This document shows positions 41,879 to 53,800 of a stretch of DNA of 58,702 nucleotides, one piece after another; position 1 is the first letter of the stretch, and every line of letters begins with the position of its first letter. The DNA lies in contig JAPEUI010000047.1 in NCBI GenBank assembly GCA_026025075.1, positions 62,001-120,702 on the forward strand. Reading direction: 5' to 3'. The position numbers and the translations under genes were made by a program. The notes beneath the pieces were generated by a model, which did not search any database, was not told where the DNA came from, and worked only from the letters and a program-made list of their open reading frames with translations. The stretch comes from Vezdaea acicularis. Lineage: Eukaryota.

Positions 41879-41991
41879 TGAGAGGAGTGGGGATCGAACC
41901 CACGCGGTTTCCCAATACGGATCACAAGTACAACCTGCGTAACAGGTGCAAATGCCTAAACGTATCGCCATAACCACTCGGCCATCCTCCC
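41879..41991 (-). tRNA. tRNA-Leu(TAG) with 34-nt intron
   Basis: Acceptor GGGAGGA/TCCTCTC+A; D arm TGGCCGAGTGGTTATGGC; anticodon stem ATACG/CGTAT with TT-TAG-G; variable arm; T arm GTGGG-TTCGATC-CCCAC; T6 Pol III terminator at 41861-41866. Confidence 0.95.
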
Positions 41992-44141: not shown

Positions 44142-47100
44142 TCACTCTATCTCTTCTATGACGGGTCTACGTTTACTGTCAGGATCAGGATCCGCCAGGC
44201 GTCTTGCCAGCACGTCCTCAGCGCGCTCTATTGAGGGCCCAGAAGCCGCATTGTCTGGTAGCCCTGTCAGATAACCTATGTGCCGTGCCTCTAGTGCATT
44301 GATTACGCTTGCGGCGTGTCCTCTAACAAGCTCATCGCCATCCGTATCATAGACCCAACCCAAGACTCTCAGAACAGCCTCAAGATTCTCTCCGGCAAGC
44401 CCAAAGCTTAGCTTCTTCCCCCTTTCAGCAGCCCCATCGAGCGCCGTGATGAGACTGTTAATCAGCAGCACTGCGGCTCGCCTGAGAATCTCCGTTCCGG
44501 GCTGTGACTCTAGTGTCAAGACTGACATCGCCAGATCTACGCCGGAATTCACCCTGGCGGGACCTATGCCTACGACATTCGTCTCCACAGCTTTGCCAAA
44601 GATGAGTAGCGCAGATGCGCGTATTCGTATATCTTCCTCCCCATCACGCCCTTCCCAGCCTTCCACAATCTTCAAGATCTCGTCCGCCCGCTGATCTTCC
44701 TCCTCCTCTTCATCCTCGTACAGATTCGGAACTTCGCCGCCCCATGCCTTGGCCGCTTCTTCGTTCTTGTTCGCTATAGTCTCGAGTCTCCTTCGCTTGT
44801 CTGCTTCCTCCTTAGGTCGTTTACCCCAACGCCCAGCTATGGAGAGACAGCCCTCCCCTATCCATCTGGCTGCGTCGCCGACGAGTAAGTCCCCCAGCTT
44901 TTCAACGACGCGAAGGAGCGTTTCGCCGATTCGAAGGCGCTGATCCAGCTGCATTCGCTCTTCGCGGTCTGCGTAGCTTTCTACGATGTGCTTGATCACT
45001 GTTTGCGGGTGGATGACGGCGAGTTCACCTAATGTCGTGATGGTGCTTAGGTACACGTAGTCCTCTGAGTCTTGCAGCATGCTGATGAGGAGAATGGTGG
45101 TAGAGGGGATGTCAAGGATAGGTGAGTGTGCTTTGATCAGACTCGTGAGTAAGGAGAGACCTTGGCCGCGTACAGGGGGAAGCTCGTCCATTAGGTAGTT
45201 TTGCGCGAGTGTGTAGGTTTTGCGGTCTTGACGGAGGGGGTCGGGCTCTGGCGCAGTAGGCTTTGCGGAGGAGAATGGAGCCGTGATAGTAATGTTAAGG
45301 AGGGCGGAGAGATTAGAGGCGGTTGTTGTCAGCGTTGGGGGGGCTGGAGCAGGGAGTTGAGAGATTCGTGTTAGAGATGATTGTATTGACTTGAGGGCTT
45401 TGTCCTGGCTCGGTGATGGGAGATAATCTTCTGACGTAAGGAGATTACTGAGGAGACTGAGGGCAATCGAAACAATTTCTTGGCGCTCATTTGCATGTTC
45501 TGATGTCTCATCACTCGGCACTTGCTCATCATGGCTGACAATGCTCCGTAGAGATGAGTGTAAGTCCATGGCTTTCTTTGCTTCATGTGCTTTGAGCTCC
45601 TCATCCTCATGACAGAAGTTGCTCAGGATCTGCTCGATTAGCTCGAGTAGCAAAGACGAATAGCTGGCAATTTTGTCCTTCATGAGATCCAACATGTTCT
45701 GGATGAGCTTGATATTAGCTATTTTCCCAAGCATAACTTGCTCATTCATAGCCGTGTCAGACGCTTCGAGAGCTTTAGGAGTCTCTGAGGACGGCTGAGC
45801 TCCTAGTAGCCAACTCTTGCTTATTGAAAGAAACACTTCACCAAGTTCGTGATCAAGTATGAGATCACCTCGTAGAAGCTTCATATATTCCTTCGCGCGT
45901 AGGTCGATATCGGAGACGCGCTCCATAAAGGTAGATGCATTTCCAACTAGATTGCTTCGACGTCGGACTTCTATACCCCCAGCACCCCCAGGAGCAAAGA
46001 CCCAGCCTCGTCGCCCATCGAAGAGCAAGTTCTGCCCTATTTTGATCATTTGCTCAGGGCCAGCAACCATCTTAAAGAACATGCGGATCAGATTGGATAC
46101 TCGTGAATACCACTTAGACTGCCTTCGCTTGGCAGAGTAGCAGAGGAGAGCCCAAAGAGGAAGGTAAAGGGGGGCGAGGAATCTCTTGGTCAAATTTGGG
46201 TTGGGGTGGGATGATAGTAAGATGTCAAGCCTGCTAATTGCCGTGTCAAGTTCAGTCTCTGACACAAGGCTGTTGAATGGGCTTTGCACCTGGTTGATAG
46301 GGGCTAACATTTCCGGATTTCCAAGGCTAGGATCAATATTGCTCAGGATCGGCTTTGCAAAGAGCTTCCAGCCGACCCCATCTGGCTTGCCATAGACTTT
46401 TTTACCAAGTATACCAGTACCAATAATGTATCCAGCAGCTTTGGCAATTTCAGGACCTGCCGATCCGTCTAGCAAGCTTAAGAGCTGCGTACTCAAGTCT
46501 GTAAACCAAATATCAGGCGCCATAGACCTTGGGACAGAGGAAAAAAGTCTTGAGGCAAGGTTTAGAGCTTTCATCGGTGTTACATCTTCTTTAGATGGGG
46601 TTGGTATCATATTTTGATCATAGCTGCGAATTGCGAAATATCGTACTGTATCACGGACACCATTGGGGCGAAGAGGTAATAGAGATAGTGTCTCTGTAAG
46701 ACGTTCTCGCAGCCAAGCTGGCGCCTCTGGATGTAGCAATTCTGTAAGGTTATAGAACAGCTGGGAAGTCGACGAACTTAAACGAAAACTTGTCAGCTTC
46801 TCTGCGTTGAGACGTAATCGTAATCGCAAGTGCACAGCAATTGAAGACTGTACCTTGAAAGTATATCCGAGAGCATTGGCAGAGATGAATTACACTCCAC
46901 GTATCCGGCATATGTAGGGTTCGCTCCAATTTCACAAAGGATGGCAATACGATCTGCAAAGGTGCGCTCCTGGATATCTTTCTCTAAACTCTGAACGCCG
47001 CCATGACCTTCTAAGGCTCCGAGATCATCTAGGTATTGAAAAAGTAATATTCTCTTCTCGTTGGAGCTAAGCTGGCTATCCCTCTCCGACCATTTTAGCT

Positions 47101-47525
47101 GAGAAACTGATCTAGTGCGCTTCTCTTTGGGAACGCCTACTCCATCTGACAAGCAAGGGTAGACCCCTTCTAGGAGAATGATGTCCAGTAGCAAGAACGC
47201 TGTAGGCGAGATAGTAGGGTTATGCGGCTGCCCCAGCTTAGAAACATCCCCCTTAAGGACAGCGTAGCGGACATCTCTCAGTAGAGCGATGGTATGGCTA
47301 ACGATCGCCACTCTAGCATTTGTACCTTCTTGCAACTGCGCAGTCGAGTTTAACCCCCCACGCAGACGATCAAGAACAGGCAACGCTCTAGAAGCTCGAT
47401 CCTTCTCTGCAATTTGTTGTCAGTTCGGAACATCGTAGAATCAAAATATGGAGTTCACTCTGTAGAGGAGCCAGATATGTCCGAGCAGCCGCTAGAGCTT
47501 GAGGAAGAGTTGGATGATTTTCCAT
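44142..47525 (-). CDS. RTP1: RNA polymerase II assembly factor Rtp1/TANGO6 (ARM/HEAT repeat)
   Basis: LEGVYPCLSDGVGVP, LPLRPNGVR, DELPPVRGQGL, LQDSEDYVYLS, LDQRLRIGE; start exon 47525-47459 and intron 47458-47407. Confidence 0.85.
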
Positions 47526-47706
47526 ACTCATCTGATGTCAGGTTGAATTGGGATATCGATACGGACTGATCAACCTCAACTAATCTCCTAAAAGTTACAT
47601 GACTGCAATGACCATGAAAATACCGCTTTAAATGATAGATAAAAAAAGGTGACTTCTCGCTCTGTTTCGAAAACTTGTCACATGCCGCCGTGACCAAAGC
47701 CGTTAA

Positions 47707-47740
47707 GCGACGCGGTGGGTCGCGTGTGTTCGCGTCGAGG
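47707..47740. promoter_or_regulatory. Three CGCG cores at exact 10-bp spacing (MCB/SCB-like)
   Basis: ACGCGG, TCGCGT and TCGCGT with CGCG starting at 47711, 47721 and 47731, between the RTP1 start and the candidate telomerase RNA. Confidence 0.45.
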
Positions 47741-47959
47741 TGATCTTCCCCTTCCTAGGCCTTCAAATTGCCTCTTCCACCAAATTTCTCTAATGACCCA
47801 GTGGAATTCAGCATGAAGTCAATGGAAAGACACATCTTCAAGCCCACTATCAACTGTACCCTGGTCCAATCGTCAGCTGACTTTGGCCAATCCAAACCTG
47901 TCAATCCTTGGCCTGCATTCTCTCCATCACTTGGAACATAGAGTGGTTTTACATATCAC

Positions 47960-50342
47960 GCACGTCACCTTCCCCATAGTTCTCCGAGTCTGATTCCCTA
48001 TCCGTTGGATGGTAGGCCCTTAGGCCCTTCAAGAGACTGCCAAGCTCCCGTTATTGCTGCACTTCGAGCCTCATAGCACGGTCTCATATGCTGTAGTGGA
48101 ACGCTGGAGTGTACCTTTCACGGTACCGGCCTTCAAGTCAAATGAGGAGGATGAAGCTCGGAACTTAACCCTAAGTATTCGTTGGTTGTCTTTTTTATTC
48201 GAAAGACGAGTTTCACGGTATAGTTGTCAATGACCTGAATAGGAATCTGGCGTCTCTTGTATCTGCTGTAAAGGCAGATATGATGCGTCTCCAGAGGACG
48301 AAAGGGGAGTTCGACGTCCAGAGTCCTTCGGACATTGAAATATGTGTTTTCCATGCGCCAATAAGGTAAATGTCTCACGAGAGACTGCGCGTCGGGCTCA
48401 CTTGCTGGACACCATACTCTGATCATCTACATGGTTGTTTGGGGATGCTTTGAGTGCTAAGAGACTTGATGGAGAGAGCAGGTGGCAAACATCGCATACC
48501 TCTTCTTGTGGATTATGTTCAGCACTCGCGCGCAGCCTTTCGTTCGGAGCACCGACACTATCATTGAGCCCTATCTTTGATCCAATATTCCAATTCAATT
48601 GGGTCAGGTTCCACGCAAGGGTCCATGCATCACGATCAAGGGCCACCTGTTGAAAGTTGTTCAAGGCACCAAATGCTCAGTTCGATTGTCGAGGGGTCTT
48701 TGAAGCATGAGCGCGAAGACCATCCCTCTTCTGGGATATTACCTACATACGGATCGCTCTACACAGACTTTCACTTCATATTTGTAATGAAGCTAGTCAT
48801 TCACGACTCGCTCGCTGTGATGACGTTATGCTATAATAGCAGACGGCTAGCGAAGTCGTCATTGCCACAAACTGAAAGTCTGTGTAGAGGCCTGGTCACT
48901 GTGTCGGATCTTCTATTAAGACGTCAGAGCAATGGTGTCTCGTCAGCTCCGAATGCTTGATTGACTCCTCGAATCGATGAGAGAGCTGGCATGATGTTAT
49001 TGGCGCTTACAACAGATCCCATGTTCAGGCATAAAACCTCTCCCTTGTTTCGTGGATTCGCTGATTCAAGGATTTGTTGGGATAGGATATGGCTTAGTCT
49101 AGCTGTTGGTGGAAGGTTCGACGATCGGCAGGCGAGAGTGATTTAGATGTCCGTCCGACCAGCTTTGCTTCCTTAAAAGCAGAGCCCCTTACTCTCCAAC
49201 CACCATCCTTAGTCACCCCGCCTCTAGCGTAAAGGGCTCTCCAAACCTATTCCACAGCACCCGCTAATGGAATAGCTCTCTCACTGAGAGTGGGACCTCG
49301 ATCAGCCGTTTCAATCACCTCCTCTTGTGTTCAGCATTAGATTTGACGGTGAACGCCAACATTACAGTCTCCTGGCGTTGTGCCATCAGACACCTCCTCC
49401 TTTACGGAGATGGAAGCGGTTTTTGTTGATGTATTTTGTCCGCTTATCACCTGCCCTCCAAGCAAATGACCCTCCTCATAATAGCGGTGGAGATGCGTTG
49501 GAGAGGAAACAAAGACTATCTCTGAGGGTAGTGCAATCACAAACCGAGAGAGGCATTTAGGCATTAGGCTGTTCCAGACGCGGATTGAATCGGATTAAAG
49601 AGATGACGCTCCACGACGCGAGTGCCAGTATGGGTTTTGGCACGTCTGGTAACGACCTCTCTAAGGAATATGCGGTTCTGTTGGTGGCCGTTTCTCCTGT
49701 TTCTACCTACGCACCTCTCAAAGCCAGGAATGGATTGATGGCATCATCAGCTGCCTTATCTAGTCTCAAATCTCTGCTCGTCTGTGGTGTTCACGATCAG
49801 GCTTCATACAAACCGCTCAGCTTCGCAAAACCCCGGCATCGTGGTAAATTCTCCTCCGAATGACTCAGTCTGGCTCCTTGGCTTGCGCGCCCTTGGGAAA
49901 TTCTGTTTTAGCATTGAAGACGAGAGTACAGGACCTTTCTCGCGTAAGGCTCAGGGTTTTGTACCCGTCTGTTCGCTCGGATCCATTGCGAAGCAAATTC
50001 TCCCTGGAAGATAGGAACGTGCATTGTCGAAAGCTAGATGAGTTCTAGTGGGGTCGGCGGCCCAAGCAGTAGCAGCAAGGTCTTGTCTTAGCGCACTTTG
50101 GATGGGTTCATGTGGAGTGTCTGAGTGAAGGAGAGCAAGATGGTGTTGACACAAGAGGAGGCGACGTTGCTCTGAGTAGGTCAGCTGGGAAATGCGGGAG
50201 CGTCCTGCAAGCAGAGGATAAGAAGGCTTAGTTGAAAGGGCAAGATCGTATGCTAGTATACCTTGGTGGGGAAGTGTGGAGGGAGCCGAGGAGGCTCGGG
50301 CTGTGCTCTGCTATAGCAGAGAACAGCCCTATCTTGTTTTTT
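47960..50342 (+). ncRNA. TER: Candidate telomerase RNA (TER), ~2.4 kb; 5' end approximate
   Basis: Template TAACCCTAA 48166-48174; boundary helix 48063-48074/48151-48162; perfect helices 48757-48773/48873-48889 (17 bp) and 49318-49330/50149-50161 (13 bp); terminal hairpin 50298-50329, U-tract, then GTGAGC...GCTAAT...CAG; no credible ORF. Confidence 0.75.
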
Positions 50343-50853
50343 GTGAGCACCCTAATGTTCGCTGGAAAGGTCATGCTAATAGCTTGTTTACTGGCAGGGG
50401 CTAGCTTGCGGAGGCTGGACTGACATCGATGACTAGTGTTATGGAGCATTGAGCTCAATCCCCACCGAGTACTAGCGTGATTCACTAGACGATACGATAT
50501 GCAGGACTTTTGGGTTGCTGAACTTCTTGGGCCAATTGCCATACTTTTTTTTACAAAACTACATTGCACTTAGTAGGCTTGTGCGTTGATCGTTTTACCG
50601 AATTGAAGGGCTGGTCTAAGCGTAAACCTCCCAATACTAGTTAGCGTCGTAGTTCCTGCGTCACTGCAGATTAAGCGAAACTTATTTTCTCCACACTTCC
50701 TGGAACGAGCATGAGCAAGGATCTTTTCATGTGGGGCCGCCACCAGGAGCGTTCCTTTTAGTTGCATCTACCTCCAATAGTGCCTGCTTTATCAACTTCT
50801 TCATCAATTGCGTATCCTGATATGGTATTTCTTTTAGATATCCTGACCTGAAG

Positions 50854-53800
50854 ATGGCTCATCCGCAAACTCCAATGGCTCTTGCCCCTCCAGTAGAGCG
50901 AATGATGTTTGACGGCTATGCCGAGCGGCCTCCAGATCTACCCGAAATAGCGGATGACGAACAATTTTCATCTATCGTGAGCAAGCTTTCATCGTAAGTA
51001 GTATCCTCATATAAGTATGCTCTCATCACATCTACTTAGTCCGTCTTTCCTCCAGGTGCATCATTGATGCAATCGATGGGCCCCACACTTTTGAGCAGAT
51101 GCGGACATCACACGAGGGGCGCGAGCTGAGACTATTGGTCTCCCACCTCTCCGCGAACGTCAGACATCCTGCGATCGTCAATGCTATACTGTGCGTTAAA
51201 TGAACTCTACCAGAGTTCAGTTCAATTCACACTGACATGATCATCTTGTAAGAGCTCTGAAATGGCACTTTGCCTCGCTCGAACCAGACGACCGCGGTCT
51301 GAATCAGACAAGAGGACATGCATGCGAAATCGTGGCCTGGCGGTTTTTAGCCCACCTTTCTGAGTCTGACATCATTAACTATTTGCTATATGAATTGCCA
51401 GGACCATCAGCAAACTCTGACGAGCCAAGAGACGTGGAGAATGGTCATTCAGTGTTGCATGAATCTTCTTTACCGGAGGTCCATGAAGGAACTCCTCTGA
51501 TTCCAAGCCCTCACATCTCTGTGTACCAAAGGCATAACCGGTCTAAATCCTCTCTGAGCCATACTTTTCAGGCTCGAGTGGAGCGAACGCTCTCTTCTAG
51601 CTTGGAGGAAGATCCCATGGCAATTTTCATTGGGCTGAATGGCCTGGAAGTTGCGGCAGTAGCGGACGCTAAAAGCTTTCTCGGCCAACGCAAGGTACAG
51701 GAAGTGCTGAACGGGATCTGGAAAGGAGACATTGTCTTCTGGGAGACACTATCCCGGAACTCGAGAAAGAAGGCCCATTTCTACAATAAGCGGTTGGTCC
51801 TGACAAGTTTCTCGCCCAGCTCAATACTGAAAGCTTTCTAGGAAAGCCGATCCTTACTGTCGGCTGAGAGTACCTAAGTACCAAAAGGTCTTCGAGGCGC
51901 TGTTCTTCGCTTCATTTTTAGCACTATACTATGCAGTATTGGTGGAGCGAAATCCTCGCCATGTCACTCCTACTGAGATACTATTATATATCTGGATCGC
52001 GGCATTTGCATACGACGAGTTGAGCGAGTTCAGAGATGCAGGTACTTTGTTTTATTCAACGGACTTTTGGAGCTCTTGGGATCTTGGGATTATTGGAATT
52101 GGGGTAGCATTTTTTGTGGCTCGTAAGTGAAATCCGTCCGCTGCTGGGGTTTCCCAAAATGCGGGATAGAGAGTGCTCGTTCTAGTGTTGTTGCCTGAGA
52201 GTAGGCAAATTGCTGACATGTGCTGCTTGAAGGGCTGATCGGACTAATCAAGATGGATGACAATATCATTGATACAGCTTTCGATATATTGTCACTCGAA
52301 GCACTTTTCCTTGTTCCACGGTCAGTACCTTCTATCCTTTGCAAAGATAAGAGGACTGTTGACGCGCTACTAGTATATGCTCTTTATTGAGCTTACATCC
52401 ATATTTCGGAACGCTGGTTCGTATCAAACTGTAGTATCCAGAGTCAATTATGCTGACTCTCAATTCTCATGAAGATCCCGTGTTTGAGAGAGATGGTAAG
52501 ATCCCTATTTTCTGAATTAGCCCGCTACATGGGAAATATCGCAGAGCTCACCTCGAGTCCACAGTGGAACGATATACTGACCTTATTTAGACGAAGGACT
52601 TTGTCAAATTCCTTGGAGTTGTAGTTATCCTCTATCTGGGTAGGTAGAATCTCAGTCCATTGATCCGGGCCCTATCCTGGGTCGTAAATCCTCTCCTTTC
52701 GAACACTCCAGGCTGGGGAATTTTTGTATAAGTATTGGGCTGATTAGAGATCACGATTGCCGCAGGTTTTCTTACCACTTTTACCTTGCTAGCAAGAGAA
52801 AAGTTCACGCCAAGCGAAATGTCTTGGATCTTGATCAAGGTCTTCTTTGGGTACGGCCCCCCATAATTGTCAAGAGCAAATGAGTCTAATTAGCAACCTC
52901 TGATTAGCTCGAGTTATCTTGGATTTGTAAGTCTCCATTCATGGTTGTATTGTCAGTTGATGCAAGCATTAACAACGATTCATAGGACGTTATGCGCGAG
53001 GTACTATTCTAGCAATCGCGCCTTGAAAATATGAGCTGACTTTGCCATATCAAGATATCCCCGTATCTCGGGCCACCTGTGATGGTGAGACGATTCAAGT
53101 GTTTCAAAAGCGAATGCCCTGACGTGGTGGCTTGCAGCTTGTGTTTGTGTGTTTGACACAGATTCTACTCGTGACGTCCCTCATCAGTCTTCTAAGCAAC
53201 AGCCTGACTAAGGTACGTAAATCTTTATTTATCATCGCCGTACACCGTTAGGTCGTTTCAGGAATGCTGAAACAGACGCGATATGCAGGTGATGGATCAT
53301 GCAAGGTATGTGCCCGATCGGGGTATGCGGAGGTGGGAACTGAATTCACCATGCTGACGGGGCAACAATAGGGAAGAATATCTATTTATTTTTAGCGTCT
53401 ACATTTTAGAGGTGAGCCGCGACCCAATGACAGGCTGCGCTATCGCCAAGCGGGATCGATGCTGCACCTCCGATTGGTGAATGCGCGCATGAGCCGATTG
53501 TCCCCAGGCCCCACGACCCAGATATCACGCCACCCGTCAAGCCCTCCCCACTGACAGCGCTCTACCGCCTAGGCATCCACGTCGAATCGACTGACCTACT
53601 TTTATCCTCCGCTGGTACGTCTTCGGCCCTACCCTTCGATTGGGTCTCGCTCCGGCGGGGAGCATCTCTGTAGGGCACCTGATCGCATGAACTGACTGTC
53701 GCAGAACCTGCTCCCATTGGTGTTTCTGCGCCCGCTCCGGCTTTTCGTCCCGGCGGAGAAATTACGTCATGCGCGGATCGTGCTGCTCAAGGTGACCCAT

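Follow-up and report, generated by a model that had tools for sequence, protein, structure and literature searches.

A probable Pezizomycotina-type telomerase RNA gene between RTP1 and YVC1 in Vezdaea acicularis, unusual in one respect at the 3′ end

The telomerase RNAs (TERs) of the Pezizomycotina were described by Qi et al. (2013, NAR 41:450), who report 73 of them, the largest measuring 2425 nt, and who give for the Neurospora crassa RNA an architecture of template, boundary element, two core-enclosing helices, a PK1/PK2/PK2.1 pseudoknot and a P5/P6/P6.1 three-way junction. For the 3′ end, Kannan et al. (2015) describe first-step-only splicing at an A-first 5′ splice site in Aspergillus TERs, and release of the mature 3′ end after the first splicing step in Schizosaccharomyces pombe TER1. 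Here we analyzed 58,702 nt of DNA from Vezdaea acicularis (assembly GCA_026025075.1, contig JAPEUI010000047.1, positions 62,001 to 120,702 of the forward strand; this whole stretch is called the window and is numbered from its first letter), in which a sequence-only reading had proposed that the gap between RTP1 and YVC1 encodes the TER of this fungus. We arrive at the same view: the gap very probably holds a Pezizomycotina-type TER gene, predicted to be single-exon, ∼2.4–2.6 kb long and on the + strand, with a promoter region common with RTP1. Rfam matches, a junction covariance model that we call R1, covariation and synteny agree on this point, and the identification is based on all core elements, through their homology and covariation as read from the sequence. 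The gene belongs to a known RNA family and is unremarkable within it except for one feature at the 3′ end.

The elements of the family follow one another on the + strand in the order core-enclosing helix, template-boundary helix, template, pseudoknot and P5/P6/P6.1 three-way junction. The Rfam model RF02462 (Telomerase_Asco) gave two collinear matches on this strand, one at 47959–48500 (model positions 209–773; 22.0 bits, E 7.4e-5) and one at 49416–49520 (model positions 1285–1381; 29.4 bits, E 2.7e-6), both obtained with E-value thresholds on shorter stretches. A whole-window Rfam scan at gathering thresholds reported only a tRNA and not RF02462, in line with the remark in the sequence-only reading that standard annotation misses these RNAs.

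To collect relatives, we scanned contigs from metagenomes for a 17-nt pattern spanning the template; at least 115 stretches carried it, and flanks were fetched for 80 of them. Beyond the 17 nt, the window aligns to these relatives at only two blocks, 47950–48520 and 49236–49551, with 60–68% identity to the best relatives and E-values down to 1.4e-35 and 2.7e-31 (blastn); the lowest of these belongs to 47951–48514 against locus L059 (63.8% identity). In all, about 900 nt of the window can be aligned to telomerase RNA loci. The RF02462 threshold was reached by nine of the 20 relative loci tested: L034 (1213 bits) and L011 match the whole model, L068 matches positions 124–1858 and L002 positions 208–1695, and the remaining five match only at the pseudoknot, as the window does. 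By this measure the relatives are loci of telomerase RNA; the more divergent among them are those that the window resembles. A FastTree tree of the core, on which we place no weight, puts the window beside L075 inside a group of L059, L017, L027 and L008.

The predicted template, 5′-UAACCCUAA-3′, occupies 48166–48174 (+), comprises 1.5 repeats and would specify TTAGGG. As the sequence-only reading had claimed, TAACCCTAA is the sole copy of its kind in the window, now confirmed on both strands, and UAACCCUAA is identical to the template that Qi et al. (2013) give for N. crassa, a species in which a marked template was expressed and the telomeres were sequenced. The 9-mer alone is not beyond chance, at least one copy being present in 22 of 100 dinucleotide shuffles. 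The 21 nt around the template match the RF02462 consensus UCGGAACUUAACCCUAAGUAU exactly, and a conserved block downstream of it (48175–48520, +) was seen by blastn to relatives and inside the first RF02462 match.

Directly abutting the 5′ side of the template is the template-boundary helix of the Pezizomycotina family, with its 5′ strand AGUucuCCGAG at 47979–47989 (+) and its 3′ strand CUCGGaACU at 48157–48165 (+). The 5′ strand matches the RF02462 consensus AGUUCUCCGA exactly, and the RF02462 structure line pairs AGU..CCGA with UCGG.ACU right beside the template. The minimum-free-energy fold of 47975–48176 pairs 47983–88 with 48157–62, and the energy of this fold is unremarkable (z −1.13). 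The basis for this helix is the RF02462 consensus structure together with the fold, and our covariation counts cover the other helices. The boundary helix of the sequence-only reading joined TTCGAGCCTCAT (48063–74) to ATGAAGCTCGGA (48151–62), which can indeed pair at 11 of 12 positions with one G–U and which end 3 nt before the 9-mer, but the RF02462 structure and the minimum-free-energy fold use 47979–89/48157–65 instead; the earlier proposal had taken the same 3′ strand as the family helix and a 5′ strand from inside the arm.

The template–pseudoknot core is enclosed by a helix formed between GCACgucACC (47960–47969, +) and GGUaGUGC (49527–49534, +). RF02462 also draws an outer helix, beginning at 47959, whose other strand lies 3′ of the pseudoknot, and the 3′ strand was placed through the Rfam structure of L034 and covariation. 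For the covariation count, segments were anchored by blastn and aligned by MAFFT, giving 21 rows and leaving out L003, L030, L045, L051 and L056, which are without the pseudoknot A-run in the 3′ segment. The six innermost of the seven pairs are kept in 20–21 of the 21 rows and the outermost (47960–49534) in 18, and three pairs show changes on both sides. Pair 47963–49531, for example, is CG in 10 rows, GC in six, AT in two, TA in one and TG in one, and pair 47967–49529 is GC in 12 and AT in nine. The sequence-only reading had closed the core with CCTATCC (47997–48003) and GGATAGG (49080–49086). Both sequences are present, as is every feature that it named at the place where it put it, but GGATAGG falls where no relative aligns and the conserved closure lies at 47960–69/49527–34.

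The pseudoknot (49414–49520, +) coincides with the second RF02462 match and contains PK1, PK2 and PK2.1 together with two U-rich strands and one A-rich strand. PK1 pairs AAGCGG (49414–19) with CCGCUU (49440–45), PK2 pairs GAUGUaUUUUGU (49428–39) with ACAAAGACuAUC (49509–20), a U5 tract lies at 49420–24 and the PK2.1 insert at 49446–49508, all on the + strand. Across 30 aligned rows, the PK1 and PK2 pairs hold in 22–30, with covariation in both helices: 49415–49444 is CG in 15 rows, AT in 11, GT in two and TA in one, and 49434–49514 is TA in 13, CG in nine and TG in four. The U-rich and A-rich strands match the triple-helix element of the family, in which, by analogy with other members, the U5 tract would take part; the base triples are putative. 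We also observed a 12-nt complementary pair, TTACTCTCCAAC (49189–49200) and GTTGGAGAGGAA (49497–49508), whose arms are 296 nt apart and whose 3′ arm overlaps the PK2.1 strand, so that it is a possible alternative pairing for that strand.

About 400 nt downstream of the core lies a three-way junction resembling CR4/5 (49924–49976, +), identified by model R1 and covariation. It consists of P5 (49924–31 with 49969–76), P6 (49932–37 with 49946–52), a junction adenosine (A49953) and P6.1, in which GGGU (49954–57) and ACCC (49963–66) flank the loop UUUGU (49958–62). The P6/P6.1 motif was located in 31 loci via the Rfam structure of L034, and R1 was built from 22 distinct aligned junction segments of the metagenomic relatives, with P5, P6 and P6.1 written in and the window excluded. 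A search of the whole window with R1, on both strands and with filters off, returned one match, 49912–49983 (+), with 53.7 bits and an E-value of 2.2e-14; the runner-up scored 9.8 bits. Applied to the 80 loci and the window, R1 found 52 sites, including 20 loci not used for building; the site in the window is 37th by rank. Pairing is kept in 90.7% of the cells of the junction alignment versus 74.6% after shuffling, both-sided changes occur at 12 of 18 pairs and the observed covariation score was reached by none of 500 shuffles, figures that somewhat favor structure because the alignment was fitted to the model.

Position 49953 is A in all 41 distinct rows, window included, and the review by Podlevsky and Chen (2016) describes the junction adenosine as required for TERT binding. 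The window P6.1 (GGGU-UUUGU-ACCC) departs in sequence from the common AAGC-UUCGU-GCUU and keeps all four pairs, three of them changed on both sides. Because the stem is changed on both sides, a fuzzy search for the junction motif, allowing up to six substitutions in 22 nt, found nothing in 47000–51000, an obstacle that the covariance model R1 overcame. Another candidate for the junction, the hairpin CUAGA-UGAGU-UCUAG near 50035–50049, received no R1 score and was rejected.

We then consider the region downstream of the junction, where the 3′ end of the RNA is expected to be made. Two 3′-domain motifs common to nearer relatives, UGGGGAAGU (50267–75, +) and GCCGAGGAGG (50285–94, +), were recognized in a MAFFT alignment of the tails. 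Two terminal hairpins (50283–97 and 50298–50329, +), read from a palindrome and from the fold of 50255–50345 (−36.6 kcal/mol, z −2.58; three of 200 shuffles were as stable), precede a U6 tract, cuugUUUUUUg (50337–42, +), which aligns with the U-tracts of the relatives before their 5′ splice sites and which we take as an Sm/Lsm-type site, predicted to be bound by Sm/Lsm proteins. The tract is followed immediately by an intron-like element (50343–50397, +) with a 5′ splice site GUGAGC (50343–48), a branch site GCUAAU (50375–80) 26 nt on and a 3′ splice site CAG (50395–97). In the tail alignment this element falls on the AUAAGU...CUGAC...GGCAG/G elements of the relatives. Its 5′ splice site lies 360 nt after the junction; the corresponding distance is 315–335 nt in the nearer relatives L017, L066, L007 and L055. 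The combination of a U-tract with a 5′ splice site, a branch site and a YAG, a pattern chosen after the site was seen, has a single occurrence on the two strands of the window and arose in 12 of 5000 Markov simulations of 49984–50700. A profile (nhmmer) of the 3′ ends of 15 relatives has its only match, a weak one, at 50318–50380 (E 0.69), and for a profile of seven relatives the only window match is 50265–50305, again weak (E 0.099, 6.5 bits). From the composite signal, the tail alignment, the profile matches and the hairpins, we therefore place the mature 3′ end at the U-tract 50337–42 with moderate confidence.

Three other candidate 3′ sites were rejected. AUGAGU at 50038 is without a U-tract and a branch site, and GUAGGU near 50177 is without a branch site. 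The third, AUAAGA at 50218, is followed after 28 nt by GCUAGU, but a U-tract and a YAG are lacking and the branch position is occupied by G; the conserved UGGGGAAGU motif would also lie downstream of it. The stretch 50218–50257 looks like a decayed A-first splice signal, a resemblance that is probably due to chance.

Among 32 distinct relative tails (those with at least 250 nt, L046 being read by eye), 28 carry a U- or pyrimidine-rich tract. After this tract come a 5′ splice site of the A-first kind (AUAAGU, AUGAGU or AUAGGU) and, 14–53 nt on, a branch site. No A-first site was recognized in L008, L020, L039 and L043. The G at intron position 1 of the window (G50343) is the one real departure from the family. 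It is possible, although on the doubtful side, that this lineage replaced the A-first "first step only" site by a canonical GU site (GUGAGC...GCUAAU...CAG). If so, one possibility is that the precursor is spliced fully and that telomerase tolerates or makes use of an RNA finished in another way. The other is that the spliceosome is stalled once the first step is done, by a feature not yet described, which would be neither the trick of an A at position 1 nor an arrangement of branch site and distance of the S. pombe type. The clade of L008, L020, L039 and L043 shows no recognizable A-first site in the available 450–500 nt and has a common GGCGACAU motif ∼90–100 nt after the junction; in L008 itself, a pyrimidine tract precedes the G-first-like GUGCGA, and GCUGAC follows 46 nt later. 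The GUGCGA of L008 and the clade-mates without an A-first site hint that a whole subclade may share the G-first trait.

At the other end of the gene, a promoter-like motif cluster lies between RTP1 and the RNA gene (47677–47736), with GTCACATG at 47677–84, GACGCG at 47709–14, GTCGCGT at 47719–25 and CGCGTC at 47731–36. The three CGCG-type motifs stand 451–429 nt before the template pattern, and GACGCG or CGCGTC is found at −500 to −401 from this pattern in 27 of 37 distinct related loci, the other 100-nt bins holding any CGCG motif in one to seven loci each. Kuprys et al. (2013) place a CRCGDCGCG element 39–48 nt upstream of the mapped 5′ end of the Aspergillus oryzae TER. In L034, 403 nt separate position 1 of the RF02462 model from the template pattern downstream, and the last CGCG motif lies 24 nt before that position. 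Taking the L034 model start and the A. oryzae spacing together, we therefore expect the 5′ end in the window near 47.76–47.79 kb, and by this analogy the cluster may serve as the TER promoter. The predicted mature RNA thus spans 47770–50342 (+), with a 5′ end within ∼20 nt either way and a 3′ end at or within the U-tract. Of the limits in the sequence-only reading, 47960–50342, the second coincides with our best estimate of the 3′ end; the first is the start of the closing helix, and the transcript probably starts about 190 nt upstream of it. The cluster, with its CACATG and CGCG-type (MluI-box-like) motifs, could also be a bidirectional RTP1/TER promoter, possibly of a cell-cycle type.

The gap extends over about 3.3 kb from the start codon of RTP1 (47531, − strand) to that of YVC1 (50857). 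That it holds no credible open reading frame (ORF), as first suggested, is borne out: the longest ATG ORF has 111 aa, and none of the five gap ORFs tested has a Pfam match at E ≤ 0.1. The neighbors were identified via Pfam, by RTP1_C1 (8.9e-30) and RTP1_C2 (1.9e-11) together with an N-terminal ORF for RTP1 upstream (44142–47531, −), and by LHD_TRPY1 and YVC1_C downstream. With RTP1 on the − strand and the RNA gene on the + strand, the two are divergent, which the sequence-only reading had also claimed. The same head-to-head arrangement recurs: among related loci with a junction match and at least 1300 nt upstream, 16 of 40 (15 of 36 distinct) have an RTP1 homologue upstream on the opposite strand (L002, L011, L025, L027, L031, L033, L034, L037, L052, L058, L063, L068, L069, L070, L073 and L079), and the remaining 24 have none at E ≤ 1e-5. 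The 16 include the three loci that match all or nearly all of the RF02462 model. We observed that they come from very different branches of the family; our literature search found no paper naming both "telomerase RNA" and "RTP1".

Several observations weigh against the identification and have to be set beside this evidence. All RF02462 scores, namely 22.0 bits for the 5′ core and 29.4 bits for the pseudoknot (or 23.8 bits, E 1.6e-5, when only 421 nt are searched), fall under the gathering threshold of 30 bits, which is a detection cut-off and not a biological feature; a Pezizomycotina TER covariance model thus recognizes two collinear parts of the locus, both below its threshold. RF02462 gives no match in 49521–50500, and no tandem TTAGGG is present anywhere in the window. 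The template is not independent evidence, because the pattern used to collect the relatives came from the window itself; of what the sequence-only reading had hoped to see in related loci, helix covariation was found and the window conforms to it, but conservation of the template carries no such weight. The 3′-end profiles of the relatives match the predicted places weakly (E 0.69 and 0.099). Finally, the G-first site of the window stands against A-first sites in 28 of 32 relatives, and Kannan et al. (2015) report that, in a construct derived from A. niger, confining splicing to the first step requires the A at intron position 1 and that changing this A to G cut telomerase function and shortened telomeres.

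These points bear on three other explanations of the locus. That a telomere-like 9-mer occurs by chance in an ordinary intergenic region, a UTR (untranslated region) or an unrelated long non-coding RNA might be argued from its presence in 22 of 100 shuffles and from the lack of conservation of the helices first proposed around it. However, the 5′ core, the pseudoknot and the junction stand in the right order on one strand (E 7.4e-5, 2.7e-6 and 2.2e-14) and about 900 nt can be aligned to telomerase RNA loci, which makes this explanation extremely improbable and effectively refutes it. The locus might instead be a non-functional or secondary TER copy, a pseudogene or paralogue, with the working gene elsewhere in the genome, and both the G-first splice site, unlike that of 28 of 32 relatives, and the P6.1 stem sequence, unique among 41 rows, would fit such a copy. 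Yet every core helix is intact, with the closing helix, PK1 and PK2 all pairing, the changes are compensatory rather than disruptive (P6.1 GGGU/ACCC pairs at four of four positions), and the head-to-head synteny with RTP1 and the promoter motifs of the orthologues are kept; we consider a secondary copy very unlikely.

The third explanation concerns only the 3′ end. Here the TER gene is real and 50343–50397 is not its 3′-processing signal; it could be an intron that is spliced normally, either in a longer precursor or in the YVC1 5′ UTR, with the 3′ end made elsewhere or otherwise. GUGAGC...GCUAAU...CAG has the look of a short fungal intron that is fully able to splice, the homology of the 3′ region is weak (E 0.69 and 0.099) and the YVC1 start codon lies 460 nt downstream. 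Against this, the UGGGGAAGU motif comes first, then the hairpins, the U-tract, the 5′ splice site, the branch site and GGCAG/G, as in the nearer relatives; the distance from junction to splice site (360 nt) is close to their 315–335 nt, and the composite signal has no second occurrence in the window and few in simulation (12 of 5000). We regard an ordinary intron as rather unlikely, and keep the reading of a TER gene whose 3′ end is formed at the U-tract.

Two further features were recorded. A long hairpin arm in the variable middle region (48757–48889, +) has 20-nt arms at 48757–76 and 48870–89 that are 95% complementary, and no relative aligns to this stretch. Elsewhere in the window, the tRNA gene reported by Rfam (RF00005, 44.9 bits) lies at 41879–41991 (−) and, at 113 nt, is long enough to contain an intron.

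Altogether, the elements suggest how such an RNA might work. By homology and covariation, the RNA carries the template UAACCCUAA for TTAGGG repeats, the helix abutting the 5′ side of the template would stop reverse transcription there, and the long-range helix closes the template–pseudoknot core; the CR4/5-like junction corresponds to the second TERT-binding element of the family. The primary transcript may run past the U6 tract into the intron-like element, where cleavage by the spliceosome at the 5′ splice site (50342/50343) would free the 5′ exon as the mature TER, ending in or at the U-tract and bound by Sm/Lsm proteins. Binding by TERT, expression and templating of the telomere repeat are predicted functions.

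A TER gene has thus been placed where Rfam at curated thresholds missed it, providing coordinates for telomere work in this fungus. The small junction covariance model, which detected at E 2e-14 an element that the full-length Rfam model missed, offers a route to divergent TERs, and the head-to-head neighborhood with RTP1 and the CGCG motifs ∼430–490 nt upstream of the template offer anchors for finding them. As the G-first 3′ element is a natural counterpart of the A-to-G mutation reported to impair telomerase in the Aspergillus-derived construct, it makes a cheap test case in which cleavage may be uncoupled from exon ligation.

Compared with the TERs of N. crassa and other Pezizomycotina described by Qi et al. 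(2013), the predicted RNA shares the template UAACCCUAA, the boundary helix, a core-enclosing helix, the PK1/PK2/PK2.1 pseudoknot, and the P5/P6/P6.1 junction with a short P6 and a 4-bp P6.1, and it is similar to their size class of 2–2.4 kb. Its predicted length of ∼2.4–2.6 kb is at or above that of the largest RNA in their set (2425 nt), one core-enclosing helix was identified where N. crassa has two, and its P6.1 stem is GGGU/ACCC in place of AAGC/GCUU. It lies far from the RF02462 seed, with local matches of 22–29 bits versus 1213 bits for L034, and its junction is not matched by Rfam. With the Aspergillus TERs of Kuprys et al. (2013) and Kannan et al. (2015) it has in common a U-rich Sm-like tract with an immediately following 5′ splice site, a GCUAAY branch site about 26–36 nt on and then YAG, as well as a CGCG-type upstream promoter element; the 5′ splice site is AUA(A/C)GU in those RNAs and GUGAGC in the window. 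S. pombe TER1, as described, likewise has an Sm site beside a G-first 5′ splice site, but relies on a strong branch site and on a branch point lying far from the 3′ splice site. In the window the two are an ordinary 18 nt apart, and the sequence shows no obvious block to the second splicing step. The RNA is about five times longer than vertebrate telomerase RNA, and its 3′ end, unlike the vertebrate one, is predicted to be formed by a spliceosome-type signal; no H/ACA domain was seen in it, no search aimed at such a domain having been made. According to Podlevsky and Chen (2016), vertebrate telomerase RNA nonetheless has, like the RNA predicted here, a template of the TTAGGG type, U-rich and A-rich strands in its pseudoknot, and a P6.1 hairpin with a 4-bp stem and a 5-nt loop beside a junction adenosine.

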